The notes: generated from the letters alone by a model not told the origin. DNA of 64,000 nucleotides from Rhodospirillaceae bacterium (GCA_027490975.1 JAIXXA010000035.1:9164-73163), one strand, 5' to 3'. Shown: positions 6,579-32,371, counted from the stretch's first letter. Numbers and translations are program-made.

Positions 6579-7460
6579 TCAGCGCGTGCGGAAGCCGCCG
6601 GTAATGGCGTGGATCAGGATGGCGGCCGTAGCGGCGACGTTCAAGGATTGTATGGGGCCGGCCGGCGGCAACGTGGCGACATGCGCGCACACGGCCAAGG
6701 TCGCCGCACTCAACCCCTCTTCCTCGTTGCCGAGCACCAAGCACACGGGCTTGGGACCGGTCGCAAGTTTCTGCATCGGCATCGGTGCCCCCGTGCCGAG
6801 GGCCGTGCCGACGACGGTATAGAAGGCGCTCAAACGGCGCAGCACGTCGGGCAGGCGATGCAGGCGATACACGTCGAGCCACACGAGCCCGCCCTCCGAC
6901 ACGCGATAGGCGGCCTCCGACGGGGCGGCCTGCGCTGGATGGTCGCTGATCGCCAGATGCGGCAGGCCGAAAAAGGCCGCCGTGCGTGCGATCGCCCCCA
7001 GATTGTGCGGGTTGCCGATGCCGTCGAGGATCACGAGCGGCTGCCAGCGCTTGGCCCATTCCTGCGCCTGACCCAAATCGAACTGGCGCACGGGCCGCGG
7101 GGCCGTCTCGGCGACAATGCCGCCATTGAGCGGCGTGCCCGCGATTTTCGCCAAGGCTTCGTCCGGCACGATGCGGTGCGCGATGTTGCGCGCGGTTGCC
7201 TCGCGCAAGAGATCGCTCGCCGCCTGCGCCATGCCGGGCGTTACGAGCAGGCGCTGCACCGCTTCGGGTGCGCGCGCAAACAGCGCCGCCACGCTCGGCA
7301 GGCCGGCTATGCGCAAGATTTCGCGCCGATGCTGGCGCTCCGGCTCTTGGCCGTGGGCGCCGTGCTTTTGGGCGCCCGGCTTGTGGGCGCCAGGCCTGCG
7401 GTCGCCGGGCTTGCGGGGACTGCCGGTTCGGTTCGGATTGCGGGGCGGAAAGCGTTTCAT
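6579..7460 (-). CDS. TrmH/SpoU family RNA 2'-O-methyltransferase (RlmB-like, basic N-terminal extension)
   Basis: SpoU methylase motifs (LVILDGIGNPHNLGAIARTA, LVLGNEEEGLS, IPM...SLNVA). Start MKRFPP at residue 22 of the listed ORF. Stop lies 15 nt before the start of the downstream oxygenase. Confidence 0.8.
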   Translation of the reverse strand: MKRFPPRNPNRTGSPRKPGDRRPGAHKPGAQKHGAHGQEPERQHRREILRIAGLPSVAALFARAPEAVQRLLVTPGMAQAASDLLREATARNIAHRIVPDEALAKIAGTPLNGGIVAETAPRPVRQFDLGQAQEWAKRWQPLVILDGIGNPHNLGAIARTAAFFGLPHLAISDHPAQAAPSEAAYRVSEGGLVWLDVYRLHRLPDVLRRLSAFYTVVGTALGTGAPMPMQKLATGPKPVCLVLGNEEEGLSAATLAVCAHVATLPPAGPIQSLNVAATAAILIHAITGGFRTR

Positions 7461-7577
7461 ATGCCAGACCCTTAGCGCGAATGGCGGCCCGGCGCCATCG
7501 GCAAGGGCGCTATCAATTGCCACGGCGGGGCGAACCCCTTATCTTCGCGCTCCCTTTTTGTTTTTGGAAACCGACAC

Positions 7578-9479
7578 ATGGACGCCTCTTCCGCCCCAAA
7601 TATCGGCCCCGATCTCGACCGCATGCGGCATTCCTGCTCGCACGTGCTGGCGGCGGCCGTGCTCAAACTCTTTCCGGACGCCAAGCTCGGCGTGGGGCCG
7701 GCGACCGATTCGGGCTTCTACTACGACATCGAAACGCCGGCTCCGCTCACGACCGAAGACCTGCCCAAGATCGAAGCCGAGATGCGCAAGATCCGCGAGC
7801 GCAAAGTGCCGTTCGTGCGCCGCGAAGTGCCGATCGGCGAAGCGGTCGCGTTCATGGAATCGACGAAGCAGAGCTACAAGGTCGAGTTGCTCGAGATGCT
7901 GCGCACGCGCGGCTCCACGGCGGCCAAAGGCCTCGAAGATCCCAACCTCGTCGAAGCCGGGGCTGCCGGCGTTTCGTCCGTGTCGCTCTACCAGCTCGGC
8001 GAATTCACCGACCTTTGCCGCGGCCCCCATGTCGAGCATTCGGGCCAGGTCGGCGCGTTCCGGCTGATGAAACTCGCCGGCGCCTATTGGCGCGGCGATT
8101 CGCGCAATCCGCAGCTCACGCGCGTCTACGGCACGTGCTGGGCCAACGAGAACGATCTCAAAGCCTATCTGCACCGCCTCGAAGAAGCCGAGAAGCGCGA
8201 CCATCGCAAGCTCGGAGCCGCCATGCAGCTCTTCCATCTGCAGGAAGAAGCGCCCGGTGCGATCTTCTGGCACCCGAAAGGCTGGACGCTGTTCCGCACG
8301 ATCGAGCGCTACATGCGCACGCGCCTCGACGCCGACGGCTACGTCGAAGTCAAAACGCCGCAGCTCGTCGATCGCGTTTTCTGGGAGAAATCCGGCCACT
8401 GGGAGAATTACCGCGACGCGATGTTCGTGGCGACCCCCGGCAAAGAGGGCGAAGAGGTCGACCGGCTCTACGCCATCAAGCCGATGAACTGCCCGGGTGC
8501 GGTGCAGATCTTCCGCCAGGGCCAACGCAGCTACCGCGAATTGCCGCTGCGCTTGGCGGAGTTCGGCGCGTGCCATCGCTACGAGCCGTCGGGGGCTTTG
8601 CACGGCATCATGCGCGTTCGCGCCTTCACCCAGGACGATGCCCATATCTTCTGCACCGAAGACCAGATCCCGGACGAGTCGAAGCGCTTCTGCGACCTTC
8701 TGCGCTCGATCTACGCCGATTTCGGCTTCAAGGATCTGCTCGTCAAATTCTCCGACCGGCCGGAAAAGCGCGCCGGCGCCGACGACATCTGGGACAAAGC
8801 CGAATCCGCCCTTGAAAAAGGGTCGGCCGCGGCCGGCCTCACGACGACGCGCAATCCGGGCGAAGGCGCTTTCTACGGGCCGAAGCTCGAATTCGTGCTG
8901 CGCGACGCGATCGGCCGCGACTGGCAGTGCGGCACGCTGCAGGTCGATTTCGTGCTGCCCGAGCGGCTCGACGCGAGCTATATCGGCGAAGACGGCGCCA
9001 AGCATCGCCCGGTGATGCTGCACCGCGCGATCCTGGGTTCGTTCGAGCGCTTCATCGGCATTCTGATCGAGAACTACGCGGGCCGCCTGCCCACATGGCT
9101 GTCGCCGATCCAGGCGCGCATGGTGCCGATCGCCGACCGCCACGTGGATTTCGCGCGCGACTTTGCCCGCCGCTTGATGGCGGCCGAACTGCCGCAGACG
9201 GACGGCGGCATTCGCATCGACGTCGACGATTCGACCGAGCGCATGCAAAAGAAAATCCGCAACGCGCAGCTCGAGCAGATTCCCTACATGCTCGTGGCCG
9301 GCGACAAAGAAGCGGCCGAAGGCAAGGTCGCAGTGCGCTTGCGCTCGGGCCAGGATCTGGGGGCGATGACTGTCGACGAAGTGATTGCGCGCATTCGCGG
9401 CGAGGTTGCCACGCGCGCCGATCTGCCGCCGCCGCAAACGCCGTCTCAGCAGACGCCGACCCAGGCAAAGGCACCGTAG
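7578..9479 (+). CDS. thrS: threonine--tRNA ligase lacking the N-terminal TGS domain
   Basis: Protein begins directly at the N2/editing-domain HxxxH motif (HSCSHVL). Class II catalytic motifs follow (RDHRKLG, FRLxExG, GPKLEF), then an anticodon-binding domain and a Pro/Gln/Thr-rich C-terminal tail. No in-frame upstream start; the upstream space is occupied by the divergent rlmB-like gene. Confidence 0.85.
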   Translation: MDASSAPNIGPDLDRMRHSCSHVLAAAVLKLFPDAKLGVGPATDSGFYYDIETPAPLTTEDLPKIEAEMRKIRERKVPFVRREVPIGEAVAFMESTKQSYKVELLEMLRTRGSTAAKGLEDPNLVEAGAAGVSSVSLYQLGEFTDLCRGPHVEHSGQVGAFRLMKLAGAYWRGDSRNPQLTRVYGTCWANENDLKAYLHRLEEAEKRDHRKLGAAMQLFHLQEEAPGAIFWHPKGWTLFRTIERYMRTRLDADGYVEVKTPQLVDRVFWEKSGHWENYRDAMFVATPGKEGEEVDRLYAIKPMNCPGAVQIFRQGQRSYRELPLRLAEFGACHRYEPSGALHGIMRVRAFTQDDAHIFCTEDQIPDESKRFCDLLRSIYADFGFKDLLVKFSDRPEKRAGADDIWDKAESALEKGSAAAGLTTTRNPGEGAFYGPKLEFVLRDAIGRDWQCGTLQVDFVLPERLDASYIGEDGAKHRPVMLHRAILGSFERFIGILIENYAGRLPTWLSPIQARMVPIADRHVDFARDFARRLMAAELPQTDGGIRIDVDDSTERMQKKIRNAQLEQIPYMLVAGDKEAAEGKVAVRLRSGQDLGAMTVDEVIARIRGEVATRADLPPPQTPSQQTPTQAKAP

Positions 9480-9639
9480 CAAGCATCGAAAAGACCGTTC
9501 AGCACGGCGAAGACCGCAAGATCGAGCACGATCAGGGCGGCGAGGATCGGCACGGCAAAACGCCACAGCAGCAGCGGCACGAGCGCCCAGGTGCGGCGCG
9601 GGGCCGCAATACTGAAGCCGTAAACGGTATTTCTGTTTT

Positions 9640-10536
9640 TCACAGATACGTCCCCGCCAATGTGATCGGCTCGCCGCCCGCGCCAAGCTTGAAGCGCGCG
9701 AGGCCCGGGCTCTTGTCGGTATCGATCGTGCCGAGATCGACCTTGCGGACCCCTTGTTCTTTGAGCGCCATGAGCCCGCGCCACAGCACGAGATTGGCGG
9801 CGTTGGCCGCACGCCCTTGCGCGTCCGACGCCGCGACGTAGTAGCTGGCGTCGGGACCGTGGCGCAGAAACAGCGCGCCCGCCACGGGCTCGCGCCCATC
9901 GAGGGCGATCGCCGCCAGGGTCTGGCGCGGGTTCTTGAGGCGCACAAGCTGGGCGACGAAATCGGCCGAGGGACCGGCAAAACCTTTGGCTACGCGCACG
10001 CGGTCGTATTGCGCCACGATCCAATCGAGCCATTTGCCGCGGTCCGCAAGCTCGATGCGGAGTCCGCGCGCCTGCGCGGCGTTGAGCCGATTTCGCCATT
10101 TCTGACGCAAAACGTGGCGCCCATACTGCGGCAGATCGACGATGGCGCAGCTATGCCCGGTATAGACGCGGCGGCGGCCGAGCCATGACATTTTCGTGAC
10201 TGTGTTTTCCTGGATTTCTGGCGCCAGCAAGACCGCGCGCAGCAACCCACGCGGCAAGGCTGCCAACAATTCCGCCGGTACCGTTTCCGTCCCCTTGAGT
10301 GCGACGGGTCCGCGCAAACCCAGCCACAATTCGGCAAGGCCGAACCAGCGCCGACCGACCAATTGCAAGGCCGCGACCGGCGCGCCCGCATCGTCGCGCG
10401 CAAGCAAGCGCAACACCGGTTGGGCCTGCCAGCGGACTGCAAGACCGTAGTCCCAATCTTGCTGCAACGGCCAGAAATCCGATCGCTGGGCGGCCTCTTC
10501 CCACAGGCGGCGATCGGGTTCGACGACGACTTCCAT
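9640..10536 (-). CDS. GNAT-fold acyltransferase, FemAB/CelD-like (Acetyltransf_6-type)
   Basis: Internal start MEVVVEPDRRLW at residue 156 of the 453-aa listed ORF; the upstream part of that ORF is antisense to the pentapeptide gene. AGGA SD 5-8 nt upstream. Composition and length typical of FemAB-like GNATs. Confidence 0.6.
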   Translation of the reverse strand: MEVVVEPDRRLWEEAAQRSDFWPLQQDWDYGLAVRWQAQPVLRLLARDDAGAPVAALQLVGRRWFGLAELWLGLRGPVALKGTETVPAELLAALPRGLLRAVLLAPEIQENTVTKMSWLGRRRVYTGHSCAIVDLPQYGRHVLRQKWRNRLNAAQARGLRIELADRGKWLDWIVAQYDRVRVAKGFAGPSADFVAQLVRLKNPRQTLAAIALDGREPVAGALFLRHGPDASYYVAASDAQGRAANAANLVLWRGLMALKEQGVRKVDLGTIDTDKSPGLARFKLGAGGEPITLAGTYL

Positions 10537-10618
10537 CGGTCCTGAAACAATACGCGTGGTGCGAAATTTGCCTTTGTAATGTAAACCTTTGAAGGTCCAA
10601 AGACGAGAGGCGCGCAAG

Positions 10619-11950
10619 ATGGGCAACGTCAAGCAGGTCGAGCGCAAGAAGCTCAGCAAACTCGACCTACTCAAGCGCATGGAAGCGCACGAGCGCTTCG
10701 TCAAACGCGCGTCCGGCGGGGCGCGCATGCAGATCCATTTCGCGCAAATCCCGCGCAACGATTTCACCGGCCGCGTGCTCGCCGAGGCCGAGTTCGTCGG
10801 CGCGGACTTGACCGAGTGCGACTTCACGCGCGCCAATCTCGACCGTGCCAATTTCTTCGGCGCCAATCTGAGCTTCGCGGTGTTCACCGACGCCAACATG
10901 TCGCGCGCCGATCTGCGCGGCTCGATCCTCAAAGGCGCGACACTCGAGGGCGCCAATCTCAGCAAGGCCGACATTCGCGACGGCTTCATCGTGACCGCCA
11001 ACGAAACCGGCGACCTCGACTATTCGGTCATGACCACGCACAAAGCCAACATGGACGACGCGAAATTCGCGGGCGCCAATTTGGGGGAAGCGCGCCTGTC
11101 GCGCACGACCGCACAGCGTACAGACATGACAAACTGCAATCTGCGCGGCGCCAACCTCGCCGGTGCGGATCTTTCCAATGCCAACCTCTCGGGCGTGGTG
11201 CTGGCGGGCGCCGACCTCACCGACACGAACATGTCGGGCTGCAAGCTCAACGGTGCGGTGCTGGTCGGCGCGCAGATGTCGGGCACCAATCTCGACGGGG
11301 CCGATCTGTGCGCAAGCTACTTCATCATGGCCGAGATGGAAAAATGCGACATGAGCAGAGCCATTCTGCCGAAGTCGCTTGCCGATCTCGGCATCTCGTT
11401 CGGCGACATCGTGGTTGCGCACAATGACTGGCTGCGCACGGGCGGGGCTGCGGGCACGCAAGCCACATTCGACGGCGTGGATCTGGGGCCCATCGAATGG
11501 CCCGGCATCACGCTGTCGGCCGCCAAGATGCAGCGCGTGACGCTGGTCCGCGCCAAGATGCCGTCGGGCCGGTTCGACATGGCGACGTTCGAAGGGGCGA
11601 TGCTGGCGGAAGTCGATTTCTCGTCGGCCAGTTTGCGCGGCGCCAATCTCGACAAATGCACGCTCGACGGCGCCAATTTCCGCGACGCGGTGTTCTCGCC
11701 CCTGCCGCTTGCGGGCATGCAAGGCACCAAATGGCCCGCGCGCATGCGCGGCTGCCGCGCGCAGAAGGCCGATTTCCGCGGCGCCGACATGACCGGCGTC
11801 GATCTGACCGAGGCGAGCTTGCGCGACGTCGATTTTCGCGGCGCCAATCTGACCGGCGCCAAGCTCGTCGATTGCGATCTCGCCGGTGCCGATCTGCGCG
11901 AAACGGTGATGACCGGCGCCGATCTGCGCGGTGCAATGGGCGTCCGCTGA
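10619..11950 (+). CDS. pentapeptide repeat-containing protein (443 aa)
   Basis: Dozens of A(D/N)LxG-type pentapeptides (ANLSGADLSNANLSGVVLAGADL...). ATG at 10619 preceded by GAGAGG SD 8 nt upstream; the listed ORF starts at an upstream TTG. Confidence 0.8.
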   Translation: MGNVKQVERKKLSKLDLLKRMEAHERFVKRASGGARMQIHFAQIPRNDFTGRVLAEAEFVGADLTECDFTRANLDRANFFGANLSFAVFTDANMSRADLRGSILKGATLEGANLSKADIRDGFIVTANETGDLDYSVMTTHKANMDDAKFAGANLGEARLSRTTAQRTDMTNCNLRGANLAGADLSNANLSGVVLAGADLTDTNMSGCKLNGAVLVGAQMSGTNLDGADLCASYFIMAEMEKCDMSRAILPKSLADLGISFGDIVVAHNDWLRTGGAAGTQATFDGVDLGPIEWPGITLSAAKMQRVTLVRAKMPSGRFDMATFEGAMLAEVDFSSASLRGANLDKCTLDGANFRDAVFSPLPLAGMQGTKWPARMRGCRAQKADFRGADMTGVDLTEASLRDVDFRGANLTGAKLVDCDLAGADLRETVMTGADLRGAMGVR

Positions 11951-30253: not shown

Positions 30254-32371
30254 ATGGCTGCCAAAAAGAAGCCCGCCAAGAAATCCCCCGCGCCTAAACC
30301 CGTTGGGAAAAAGCCGGTCGCCAAGCCGGCAAACGGCAAAAAAGCGACGCAAAAGAAGCCACTTGCGGCCAAAAAGCCGACGCCGGCCAAGAAGCCCGTG
30401 GCGGCCAAGAAGCCCGCACCGCCCGCCAAAAAGGCGCCGGCCGCCAAAAAACTGGCGCCCGCCCCCAAAAAACCGGCGCTTGCGGCCAAGAAACCGGCCC
30501 CGGTGGCCAAAAAGCCGGCCGCCGCGCTGAAATCGCCGCCGAAAACGCCGGCAAAGCCGGCCGCAAAGCCGACCGCAAAGCCGGGGGCGAAGTCGGCAGT
30601 TGCCGTCCCAACGCCGGCCCCCGCAAAATCACCCCCGGCCAAACCGGCCGCGGCAGCCCCGGCGGCCAAATCGGCGCCGGCCAAGGCCCCGCCGGCCAAG
30701 CCCGTCGCCGTTGCCCCGCCGCCGCCGCCCAAACTGCCGGTGAAGGGCCCCGGCGGCACCGTGCTGCCCGACGACGGCGTGAAGCTCGACGCCAAGGTGC
30801 TGCCGGCCCAGCTCGCGGTTCTGACGCCAGAAGCGATCGCCTTCGTGGTCGAACTCGAGCGCAAATTCGGCGCGCGCCGCCGCGAACTTTTGGCCGCGCG
30901 CACGGCCCGCCAGGCGCGCCTCGATGCCGGCGAAAAACCCGATTTTTCGCCGATGACGCGCAGCGTGCGCGAAGGCGACTGGACGGTTGCCCCGCTGCCC
31001 AAAGACATCTTGGACCGCCGCGTCGAAATCACCGGCCCCGTCGACCGCAAGATGGTGATCAACGCGCTGAACAGCGGCGCCAACGTGTTCATGGCCGATT
31101 TCGAGGATGCCTCGGCGCCGTCCTGGAACAATCTCGTCGACGGCCAGATCAATCTGCGCGACGCGATCGCCGGCACCATCGCCTACAGCGATGCGGCATC
31201 GGGCAAAAGCTACAAGCTCAACCCCAAACACGCGGTGCTGTTCGTGCGCCCGCGCGGGCTTGCCCTGCCCGAGAAGCATCTGCTGGTCGACGGCCAGCCG
31301 ATGGCGGGCGCCTTCTTCGATTTCGGTTTCTATTTCTTCCACAACGCCAAAGCGCTGCTCAAAAACGGCTCGGGCCCGTATTTCTACCTGCCCAAGCTCG
31401 AAAGCCATCTCGAGGCGCGGCTGTGGAACGACATTTTTGTGCATTCGCAGACAGCACTCGGCATCAAGACCGGCTCGATCAAGGCGACGGTGCTGATCGA
31501 AACGATCCTCGCCGCCTTCGAGATGGACGAAATCCTCTACGAACTGCGCGAGCATTCGGCCGGGCTCAATTGCGGGCGCTGGGACTACATCTTCAGCTTC
31601 ATCAAGAAATTCGCAACGCGCCCCGCCTGCCTGATGCCCGATCGCGGCCAAGTCACGATGGTGTCGCATTTCATGCGCGCCTACAGCCAGCTCGCGATCA
31701 AGACCTGCCACAAGCGCAACGTGCACGCGATGGGCGGCATGGCCGCACAGATCCCGATCAAAGACGACGCGGCCGCCAACGCGGCCGCCATGGACAAGGT
31801 GCGCGCCGACAAGGAGCGCGAAGCCGCCGACGGCCACGACGGCACGTGGGTGGCGCATCCGGGCCTCGTGGCGATCGCCAAGGCCGCCTTCGACGACAAG
31901 ATGAAAGACGCCAACCAGATCGCGCGCAAACGCCAGGACGTGCACGTGGCGGCGGCCGACCTGCTGCAGGTTCCGGCGGGAACGGCGACCGAAGCGGGCC
32001 TGCGCCAGAACTGTGCGGTCGGCATCGGCTACCTCGAAGCCTGGCTGCGCGGCCAGGGCTGCGTGCCGCTGTACAACCTGATGGAAGACGCCGCCACCGC
32101 CGAAATCAGCCGCGCGCAGGTGTGGCAGCAGCTGCACCACGAAGCGCATCTCGACGACGGGCGTGCGGTCGAAAAACCCTTCGTGCGCAAGATCGTCGAC
32201 GAGGAGCTCGAGAAGCTCAAGAAGAGCGTGGGCGCCGAGCGCTACGCCAAGGGCCGCTACAAAGAGGCGGCCAAGATGTTCCTCGAACTCGTGGAAGCCG
32301 AAACCTTCCCCGAATTCCTGACGCTCCCCGCCTACGACTGGCTCGTCGCCAACGAAGCCAAGCTCGGCTAA
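30254..32371 (+). CDS. aceB: malate synthase A with about 170-aa N-terminal Lys/Ala/Pro-rich histone-H1/AlgP-like repeat extension
   Basis: Residues from about 170 align end-to-end with E. coli AceB (EITGPVDRKMVINALNSGANVFMADFEDA, GLNCGRWDYIFS, CVPLYNLMEDAATAEISR). The N-terminus is (A/P)AKKP repeats with no stop or Met before the catalytic core. AAGGAA SD 9 nt upstream of the 30254 ATG. Confidence 0.85.
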   Translation: MAAKKKPAKKSPAPKPVGKKPVAKPANGKKATQKKPLAAKKPTPAKKPVAAKKPAPPAKKAPAAKKLAPAPKKPALAAKKPAPVAKKPAAALKSPPKTPAKPAAKPTAKPGAKSAVAVPTPAPAKSPPAKPAAAAPAAKSAPAKAPPAKPVAVAPPPPPKLPVKGPGGTVLPDDGVKLDAKVLPAQLAVLTPEAIAFVVELERKFGARRRELLAARTARQARLDAGEKPDFSPMTRSVREGDWTVAPLPKDILDRRVEITGPVDRKMVINALNSGANVFMADFEDASAPSWNNLVDGQINLRDAIAGTIAYSDAASGKSYKLNPKHAVLFVRPRGLALPEKHLLVDGQPMAGAFFDFGFYFFHNAKALLKNGSGPYFYLPKLESHLEARLWNDIFVHSQTALGIKTGSIKATVLIETILAAFEMDEILYELREHSAGLNCGRWDYIFSFIKKFATRPACLMPDRGQVTMVSHFMRAYSQLAIKTCHKRNVHAMGGMAAQIPIKDDAAANAAAMDKVRADKEREAADGHDGTWVAHPGLVAIAKAAFDDKMKDANQIARKRQDVHVAAADLLQVPAGTATEAGLRQNCAVGIGYLEAWLRGQGCVPLYNLMEDAATAEISRAQVWQQLHHEAHLDDGRAVEKPFVRKIVDEELEKLKKSVGAERYAKGRYKEAAKMFLELVEAETFPEFLTLPAYDWLVANEAKLG
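30263..30760 (+). repeat. imperfect tandem repeat of gccaagaagccggc(c)-type units encoding the KAP-rich tract
   Basis: Direct reading of 30263-30760 shows repeated gccaagaagcccg/gccaaaaagccggc units. Confidence 0.7.

Follow-up and report, generated by a model that had tools for sequence, protein, structure and literature searches.

A TGS-less threonyl-tRNA synthetase gene with the pattern of a domain mosaic in a Tagaea-like Rhodospirillales clade, near a FemX-like transferase paired with a small membrane protein

The subject of this report is a threonyl-tRNA synthetase (ThrRS) gene, thrS, at 7578-9479 (+) in a stretch of 64,000 nt from a Rhodospirillaceae bacterium (GCA_027490975.1 JAIXXA010000035.1:9164-73163), hereafter the window, together with the GNAT-fold transferase gene that faces it downstream. 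This thrS is atypical for its order in that it lies away from infC, lacks the N-terminal TGS domain and is a domain mosaic whose parts resemble two different ThrRS lineages. The best overall explanation, to which we would give roughly even chances, is that it is a functional mosaic gene encoding the principal and probably the sole ThrRS of these cells, and that the GNAT belongs to a separate module. The mosaic nature of thrS is what is new here, and the pairing of the GNAT with a small membrane protein is also worth following up. Below, P with four digits denotes 50%-identity cluster representatives or cluster sequences, and L with three digits denotes loci.

Results

The thrS product is a protein of 633 aa in which Pfam finds three domains (tRNA_SAD, tRNA-synt_2b and HGTP_anticodon), and it belongs to the NCBIfam thrS equivalog TIGR00418 with 659.5 bits against a cutoff of 383.65, a model that does not itself include N1/TGS. 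A first-pass annotation of this DNA, made from the sequence alone, had described a gene opening at the HxxxH motif of the N2 editing domain without room for a TGS domain, and this description holds. HxxxH occupies residues 18-22, a Pfam search finds no TGS match (PF02824) in the product, the alignment covers residues 68-636 of E. coli ThrRS (E=4e-196) with N1 (residues 1-62) cleanly missing, and the start used is the first start codon past an in-frame stop. Over the whole window, tblastn with a TGS-containing ThrRS found neither a TGS-coding remnant nor a second thrS. The same annotation was right about the 117-nt gap to a divergent rlmB-like gene, which gene coordinates place at 6579-7460 (-), and about the lack of infC, rpmI and rplT downstream of thrS, none of which occurs in the window.

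The mosaic pattern emerges when identity is calculated by segment—residues 13-105 for the first half of the N2 domain (N2a), 205-500 for the catalytic domain and 510-610 for the anticodon-binding domain—against 63 canonical proteobacterial ThrRS, supplemented by 43 further canonical metagenome loci (106 in total). The class II catalytic core (8190-9077 (+); residues 205-500, with the zinc ligands and a variant MNCPGA motif) is of the Rhodospirillales type. It shows 72.5% mean identity to the 63 canonical enzymes, which is the canonical-versus-canonical mean, and its best match at 80% is L007, a Rhodospirillales groundwater metagenome-assembled genome (MAG) with thrS-infC. The two cores are sisters in 43/60 neighbour-joining bootstraps, and the MNCPGA variant is common to L007 and the clade to which the window gene belongs. 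N2a (7614-7907 (+); residues 13-110, including HxxxH) resembles instead a foreign TGS-less lineage. Its mean identity to the 63 canonical enzymes is 41.7%, whereas for canonical pairs matched for core identity the mean is 62.6% and the lowest value 0.44, and it is 59% identical to the TGS-less representative P0304, the core of which is 46% identical to that of the window protein. Together with the insertion that follows it, N2a is sister to P0304 in 52/60 neighbour-joining bootstraps.

That insertion, defined by alignment, is a clade-specific stretch of 21 aa in N2 (residues 111-131, RGSTAAKGLEDPNLVEAGAAG; 7908-7970 (+)). It is missing from the 63 canonical sequences and from the TGS-less locus L078, while the TGS-less representatives P0304, P0322, P0332 and P0377 each carry an insertion at this position that opens similarly, with T(R/K)G(S/T)T. 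An AlphaFold2 (AF2) model of the ThrRS, which was moderate with a predicted local distance difference test score (pLDDT) of 71 and was used solely to call the insertion and the C-terminal tail disordered, gives pLDDT <50 for residues 115-128, a low-confidence loop. At the other end of the protein, the anticodon-binding domain (9105-9407 (+); residues 510-610), also delimited by alignment, is highly divergent and contains a 7-aa insertion. Its mean identity to canonical enzymes is 32.4% versus about 53% expected, with the changes R574S, N575T, K577R, E584N and H585A in E. coli numbering and with R583, E600 and R609 kept, and in segment bootstraps it clusters weakly with TGS-less sequences. Sliding-window comparison places the switches near residues 135-150 and at about 500. 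The 43 independent canonical metagenome loci repeat the pattern, most of them being 71-79% identical in the core, 38-46% in N2a and 27-38% in the anticodon-binding domain. In a whole-protein tree the clade falls outside the alphaproteobacterial cluster on a long stem, a position that fits a mosaic. Because the cores of P0304, P0322, P0332 and P0377 are 37-49% identical to the window protein, versus 72.5% for canonical enzymes, the window protein cannot simply be assigned to a TGS-less lineage.

The gene appears to encode an active enzyme. The residues that we take to be functional are, in E. coli numbering, H73, H77, Y104, K156, D180, C182 and H186 for editing, C334, H385 and H511 for zinc binding, R363, E365, Q381, D383, Y462, K465 and H309 for catalysis, and R583, E600 and R609 for contact with the anticodon. 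All of them are kept in every clade member checked. In window numbering, the zinc ligands C305, H356 and H482 are conserved in seven of seven clade sequences along with R334, E336, Q352, D354, Y433 and K436, and the editing-site residues H18, H22, K101, D145, C147 and H151 are present in the product, the last three within a DxCRGPH motif (8010-8030 (+)) that is invariant in clade and canonical sequences. The substitution H337A looked striking against the first match set, before wider sampling, and was dismissed as a special active-site change once it proved common to L007 and more than 40 canonical enzymes. The ratio of nonsynonymous to synonymous substitution rates (dN/dS; Nei-Gojobori, against six clade relatives) is 0.08-0.18 overall, below 0.4 in each domain and 0.04-0.40 in insertion residues 111-131, and identity across the clade is 83-96% for ThrRS versus 52-99% for the GNAT. 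The gene has thus been under strong purifying selection in the clade, and its sequence is best explained by a fully functional, editing-competent ThrRS.

Proteins of this kind form a group of five 90%-identity clusters with about 130 sequences that are 83-96% identical, all without TGS, and labelled as Tagaea sp. or as Rhodospirillales or Alphaproteobacteria MAGs. Immediately below the group, identity falls to 60% and the enzymes contain TGS. Two longer clade members (P0154 and P0166) were considered as TGS-bearing and rejected, their extensions being miscalled Arg-rich starts. The core arrangement—a 2-oxoglutarate (2OG) oxygenase gene, the SpoU gene divergent from thrS, then a small open reading frame (ORF) and the GNAT gene convergent with thrS—is kept at all distinct clade loci for which gene tables were read, including one on a circular contig of 4.09 Mb (ERZ26867466 ctg28248).

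The position of the gene is unusual. At 80 related canonical thrS loci (GTDB species, including Magnetospirillum, Roseomonas, Nisaea and Stellaceae), infC directly follows thrS in 75, which makes its absence here meaningful, and a TGS domain is encoded upstream in 79. SpoU or GNAT neighbours occur at none of the 80, and the window locus, which has no neighbours in common with these canonical loci, shows no positional orthology with them. At L007 the infC matches (2051-2480) are split over two adjacent frames, an apparent frameshift or sequencing error. The architecture itself is less exceptional. When the 50%-identity representatives were searched exhaustively, some 20 of the top 150 gave alignments that began at residues 3-15 of the representative, and all 10 that were checked have the TGS-less three-domain architecture, so that at least 10 cases are verified. 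Since this architecture is common elsewhere, TGS loss is not a mark of specialisation. In Campylobacterota, spirochaetes and cyanobacteria, the housekeeping ThrRS is presumably about 580-612 aa long. A search of the literature on TGS-less ThrRS and on Tagaea turned up nothing directly relevant.

Two sequences met in this survey deserve mention. At L078 (483-8128, a Spirochaetia MAG), a thrS encoding a TGS-less protein of 579 aa has no infC after it and is followed by a complete shikimate-pathway operon; the core of this ThrRS is proteobacterial-like at 64%, above the other TGS-less representatives, and it may be a second mosaic. P0008, from a Joint Genome Institute (JGI) contig of 2998 bp, is a ThrRS-like protein of 625 aa with a motif-1 region before N2-like sequence and is probably a chimera of assembly or gene calling.

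Several searches were directed at a second, canonical thrS. Among the matches listed in a ThrRS search of genome contigs there were canonical thrS only, at 51-60% identity, and no clade genome. With an initiation factor 3 (IF3) query from L017, which of the canonical loci comes nearest to the window in tetranucleotide signature, none of the matches listed lay on a known clade contig; a large IF3 cluster (P0499) belongs to an unrelated organism (GC 54-60%, tetranucleotide r 0.35-0.48), and nothing in the clusters of the best canonical ThrRS matches connected them to the clade. Scanning metagenomes for DNA that encodes MNCPGAVQIF recovered five clade loci and 44 others, the latter consisting of 43 canonical or N-terminally cut thrS and one locus (L131) starting only at q180. 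None of the canonical MNCPGA-type thrS came from the five metagenome samples with a clade contig, which is weak negative evidence.

At its 3' end thrS runs into the convergent genes. The Pro/Thr/Gln-rich C-terminal tail (residues 615-633 and the stop; 9420-9479 (+)), correctly picked out by the first-pass annotation, reads ...ADLPPPQTPSQQTPTQAKAP and is predicted to be disordered (AF2 pLDDT <50). Over its last 34 nt, thrS overlaps the 3' end of a small ORF on the opposite strand, at 9446-9643 (-), so placed that the end of the tail, TQAKAP*, lies opposite the conserved C-terminus of the small protein, AFAWVGVC*. The tail is short at L091 and L093, whose two genes have little or no overlap. It is best seen as a disordered 3' extension, produced by read-through into the convergent gene, and not as a functional appendage. 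The small ORF encodes a membrane protein of 65 aa, is called as a gene in clade loci and is coupled translationally to the GNAT gene through a GTGA stop/start overlap. The earlier description of an Acetyltransf_6 gene downstream of thrS and convergent with it holds, with one omission, since this ORF, missed at the time, lies between the two. Its family comprises proteins of 46-65 aa encoded beside FemX-like Acetyltransf_6 genes in Alpha- and Betaproteobacteria in all cases examined, with a basic N-terminus, an IPAP(R/K)PT-like motif, one hydrophobic (transmembrane) helix and a C-terminal CYGxF...C motif. Homologues lie at L088 7864-8004, L090 7731-7928, L094 6750-6938 and L098 6770-6964, and a search for a Pfam family found none. 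The small protein could be a membrane anchor or even a substrate of the transferase.

The GNAT gene itself (9640-10536 (-)) encodes a FemX-type tandem-GNAT transferase of 298 aa, assigned from Pfam, profile and AF2/Foldseek comparisons. It matches Acetyltransf_6 (E=1.7e-11, 44.9 bits vs 22), remains just below the gathering score of FemAB (PF02388; 22.9 vs 24 bits) and falls outside TIGR03019 (17 vs 260). An AF2 model built from an alignment of 47 homologues has a pLDDT of 96.1 and a tandem-GNAT fold, and Foldseek matches it to FemX 1XE4 (E=7e-17, TM-score 0.80), followed by Sbb17/Sba18 and S. aureus FemA and FemX, and then by aminoacyl-phosphatidylglycerol synthase domains of MprF. A sequence profile searched against the PDB retrieves aminoacyl-tRNA (aa-tRNA) transferases only (S. 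aureus FemX, Sba18/Sbb17 and Weissella FemX). In an R/FK/LG motif, F282 and K283 are invariant in the 47 homologues, and the RFKLGxGG of the GNAT aligns with RFKLG of Sba18/Sbb17. The hidden Markov model alignment to Weissella FemX, whose conserved C-terminal Phe-Lys we take to be F304/K305, ends just before this motif. The FemAB-like nature proposed for this protein by the first-pass annotation is thus confirmed at the level of predicted fold and profile. As judged from these models, the GNAT is a member of the FemX superfamily of aa-tRNA-dependent enzymes, and aa-tRNA is its plausible donor.

The distribution of the GNAT differs from that of its pairing with thrS. Its family yields 173 matches, with members of 34-42% identity in other Alphaproteobacteria, Geminicoccaceae, Limnohabitans and Ramlibacter, and these homologues sit in housekeeping or flagellar neighbourhoods. 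No thrS lies beside the homologues outside the clade in five distinct gene contexts, and in genome JANSXE01 the GNAT is on one contig (L098) and an ordinary TGS-containing thrS-infC on another (L040). The adjacency of thrS and GNAT, for which co-occurrence in other genomes had been proposed as a check, is limited to a single clade, the Tagaea-like one. The distant GNAT homologues, by contrast, have a homologous small membrane ORF beside them in all cases examined. Since the small ORF accompanies the GNAT everywhere and thrS does not, the conserved partner of the GNAT is the small membrane protein and not ThrRS. In one alphaproteobacterial lineage (L088 6836-10178 and L096 1611-4938) the GNAT homologue lies between genes for aspartate-semialdehyde dehydrogenase and a pyridoxal phosphate (PLP)-dependent enzyme of 403-407 aa (PALP); at L088 homoserine dehydrogenase is also encoded nearby, which may link to amino-acid metabolism of the Asp/Thr family.

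Among the remaining features of the locus, the SpoU/RlmB-like RNA 2'-O-methyltransferase gene (identified by Pfam, NCBIfam, synteny and translation) is paired divergently with thrS at every clade locus; the N-terminus of its product is extended by about 45 aa, basic and rich in Pro and Gly, and the protein is below all NCBIfam equivalog cutoffs. A consensus scan upstream of thrS found a match to a sigma-70-like promoter (TTGCCA-17-TATCTT; 7517-7545 (+)), a putative function, and the TTGC...TA..TT elements are partly kept among clade loci in an upstream alignment. A regulatory leader was considered and discarded, since Rfam gave no match and the alignment contained promoter-like elements only. 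The clade alignment revealed no conserved upstream element beyond this promoter-like match, a Zur box not having been specifically searched for. There is no tRNA gene in the window and no Rfam element near thrS. The neighbours of thrS are genes for the SpoU protein, a 2OG oxygenase, an AMP-binding protein, an RNA-recognition motif (RRM) protein, a response regulator and a TRAP transporter. Between the GNAT and RRM-protein genes, 10589-11950 (+) encodes a 453-aa pentapeptide-repeat protein with HetL/Qnr-like repeats; this gene is missing at this position in the closest relatives (L001-L006), which makes it a strain-specific insertion. Farther away, 30254-32371 (+) encodes a malate-synthase-like protein with an N-terminal extension of about 170 aa that is rich in Ala, Lys and Pro (histone H1-like) and accounts for a local AT-skew spike at 30-32 kb.

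Discussion

The simplest reading of the mosaic is that an acquired TGS-less thrS recombined with a thrS of the Rhodospirillales type, a mechanism that we infer from the segment pattern. The core (about residues 150-500) would come from an ordinary Rhodospirillales-type gene, and the N-terminal part—without TGS, with a divergent N2a and with the 21-aa loop insertion—from a distant TGS-less ThrRS lineage. The anticodon-binding domain probably came from such a lineage too, or else it diverged strongly. One possible form of the event is a native core conversion patch of about 1 kb, written into a foreign copy at the SpoU locus; the resulting mosaic would have been fixed away from infC in the ancestor of the Tagaea-like Rhodospirillales clade. 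The product would charge tRNA-Thr for translation. The GNAT and the small membrane protein would then be a separate two-gene module that draws on the general aminoacyl-tRNA pool, with thrS independent of it and the adjacency a matter of clade-specific synteny.

Several points weigh against this explanation. The trees are neighbour-joining only and were built on short segments, and no donor was identified for the anticodon-binding domain, for which the best identity is 45-49%. The gene is not at the thrS-infC position conserved in 75 of the 80 related loci. A conversion patch means that two thrS genes were once in one cell, and such pairs are often retained; the failure to find a second thrS holds for data that did not include complete clade genomes. 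Finally, the arrangement of thrS, small ORF and GNAT with SpoU survives changes in the outer flanks, which could reflect a functional linkage. The missing donor could also be a sign that there was no recombination at all, and that a vertically inherited thrS lost its TGS domain and changed its place, after which N2a and the anticodon-binding domain evolved at a higher rate, its likeness to TGS-less enzymes being convergent or a tree artefact. The intermediate character of the second half of N2 (N2b) and the susceptibility of neighbour-joining to long-branch attraction speak in the same direction. However, the 59% identity of N2a to P0304 exceeds that to all 106 canonical sequences (maximum 49%), more than acceleration alone would produce, and the insertion shares its site and T(R/K)G(S/T)T-like start with P0304, with which N2a and the insertion group in 52/60 bootstraps. 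We therefore regard purely vertical descent as rather unlikely, and retain recombination of two thrS lineages as the explanation of the mosaic.

Whether the mosaic enzyme is the main ThrRS of the cell is a closer question, on which we lean slightly towards its being the principal or sole one. We infer a housekeeping role because TGS-less architecture is common, because L078 has a TGS-less thrS beside a shikimate operon and because there is no nearby tRNA or Rfam element; the five metagenome samples without a canonical MNCPGA-type thrS add weakly to this. Alternatively, a canonical thrS-infC could exist elsewhere in the genome, with the window copy serving as a condition-specific back-up or stress isoenzyme, possibly altered in editing or tRNA handling. 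Bacteria offer precedents for such isoenzymes, in thrS/thrZ of Bacillus and T1/T2 of cyanobacteria. The mosaic implies two thrS types that once resided together, the gene lies off a near-universal locus, and it is the tRNA-handling modules (N1, N2a and the anticodon-binding domain) that are all remodelled while the core is not. The N2 insertion also lies within about 15 residues of the site of 'insert a' in Anabaena T2 (PMC4787780), although the alignment puts it in a different loop and an insertion of the P0396 type fits T2 better. Set against a back-up role are strong and uniform purifying selection with very high conservation in the clade, intact editing motifs, an upstream region that offers only the promoter-like match already described, and the failure to find a second copy in any data reached. 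A retained isoenzyme is consequently a real but clearly weaker candidate, and a principal ThrRS of mosaic origin remains our preference.

The first-pass annotation had proposed that this thrS is dedicated to supplying the neighbouring Fem-like transferase. In such a scheme a ThrRS paralog would feed Thr-tRNA to the FemX-like protein for threonylation of a target such as peptidoglycan, the small protein, a lipid or a natural product. The GNAT does have a FemX-type fold, with an FK motif that is invariant among its homologues, and thrS, small ORF and GNAT stay together at every clade locus, even where the GNAT is down to 52-66% identity and the outer flanks have changed. But thrS and GNAT are convergent and hence not co-transcribed, the GNAT has the small membrane ORF as its conserved partner, and homologues outside the clade are never beside thrS and co-exist with a canonical thrS-infC (L040/L098). 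There is, moreover, no dedicated tRNA in the window, the ThrRS keeps its full set of editing and anticodon-recognition residues, and nothing points to threonine as the transferred amino acid. Dedicated supply thus finds little to sustain it, and we consider it improbable. A variant joining it to the retained-copy idea—a conversion-derived second ThrRS whose remodelled tRNA-handling domains channel Thr-tRNA to the transferase and its small membrane partner, which threonylate an envelope component or else that small protein—seems to us more doubtful still.

The other proposal made at that stage, an antibiotic-insensitive second ThrRS, fares worst. It would have the gene confer self-resistance of the borrelidin or obafluorin type, or an acquired resistance. 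The residues that we take to line the inhibitor pocket or to be altered in borrelidin clusters are S/T307, H309, P335, L489 and L493. In the window protein S307, H309, P335, L489, L493 and Y462 are unchanged relative to canonical enzymes, H337A is common to many of these, and the drug-binding catalytic core is precisely the ordinary, native-like segment. No polyketide synthase (PKS), nonribosomal peptide synthetase (NRPS) or other biosynthetic genes occur within about 10 kb at at least eight loci. Resistance has in its favour an atypical gene, foreign in part and away from the canonical locus, and the fact that ThrRS copies linked to biosynthetic gene clusters are known second copies (10.1101/704981). 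Taken together, we judge resistance very improbable, and a functional mosaic thrS with a separate GNAT module remains our best explanation.

If the mosaic holds up, it would be a clear case of natural domain-level recombination in an essential aminoacyl-tRNA synthetase (aaRS), in which a native core was combined with foreign tRNA-handling modules. It would also mean that a lineage can do without TGS/N1 and without linkage to infC although its relatives have retained both. The window gene is, besides, a natural experiment on the roles of N1 and the N2 loop in editing. The FemX-like GNAT and its small membrane protein constitute a proteobacterial module, uncharacterised and widespread, in which aminoacyl-tRNA may be used for purposes other than translation. 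Should channelling of Thr-tRNA prove true after all, it would be a tRNA-dependent modification system so far undescribed in Gram-negative Alphaproteobacteria.

Comparison with known systems highlights both similarities and differences. With E. coli-type ThrRS (1QF6; TIGR00418) the window protein shares an N2 domain with HxxxH and DxCRGPH, a zinc-dependent class II core and an HGTP anticodon-binding domain. It differs by the lack of N1/TGS, the 21-aa insertion in N2 and the 7-aa insertion in the anticodon-binding domain, the disordered C-terminal tail, a location that is not upstream of infC, and an N2a and anticodon-binding domain far more divergent than the core. TGS-less ThrRS (P0304, P0322, P0332, P0377 and L078) have the same three-domain architecture, P0304 is in addition 59% identical in N2a and has its insertion at the corresponding position, and L078 shares several clade-specific residue states. 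Unlike them, the window protein has a core much closer to canonical proteobacterial enzymes (72.5%) than to the TGS-less representatives (37-49%).

In the cyanobacterial T1/T2 system, T2 carries a 20-aa N2 insert that impairs editing, long inserts being associated with genomes that have two copies (Rubio et al. 2015, PMC4787780). The window protein likewise has an N2 insertion of about 20 aa near DxCRGPH, and the numbering of T2 also implies a shortened N-terminus. However, the insertion apparently sits in the preceding loop, and its identification with 'insert a' of T2 was rejected on the alignment, which places it in a loop neighbouring that site; nor is a T1-like partner copy in evidence here. 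For the transferase, the closest parallels are FemX (Weissella viridescens 1NE9 and S. aureus 6SNR) and Sba18/Sbb17 (9WQY and 9WQW), which share with the GNAT a compact tandem-GNAT fold without the coiled coil of FemA (TM-score 0.69-0.82) and profile-level sequence similarity, with the RFKLGxGG motif aligned in Sba18/Sbb17. They are 14-23% identical to it, and it is the GNAT that is found in Gram-negative Alpha- and Betaproteobacteria, in housekeeping contexts and paired with a membrane protein of 46-65 aa. Finally, the VlmL/VlmA pairing and BorO/ObaO resemble the window in placing an atypical aaRS gene beside or near an enzyme that uses aa-tRNA, whereas the window combines convergent genes and a pairing confined to one clade with neither a biosynthetic cluster nor resistance-type substitutions.

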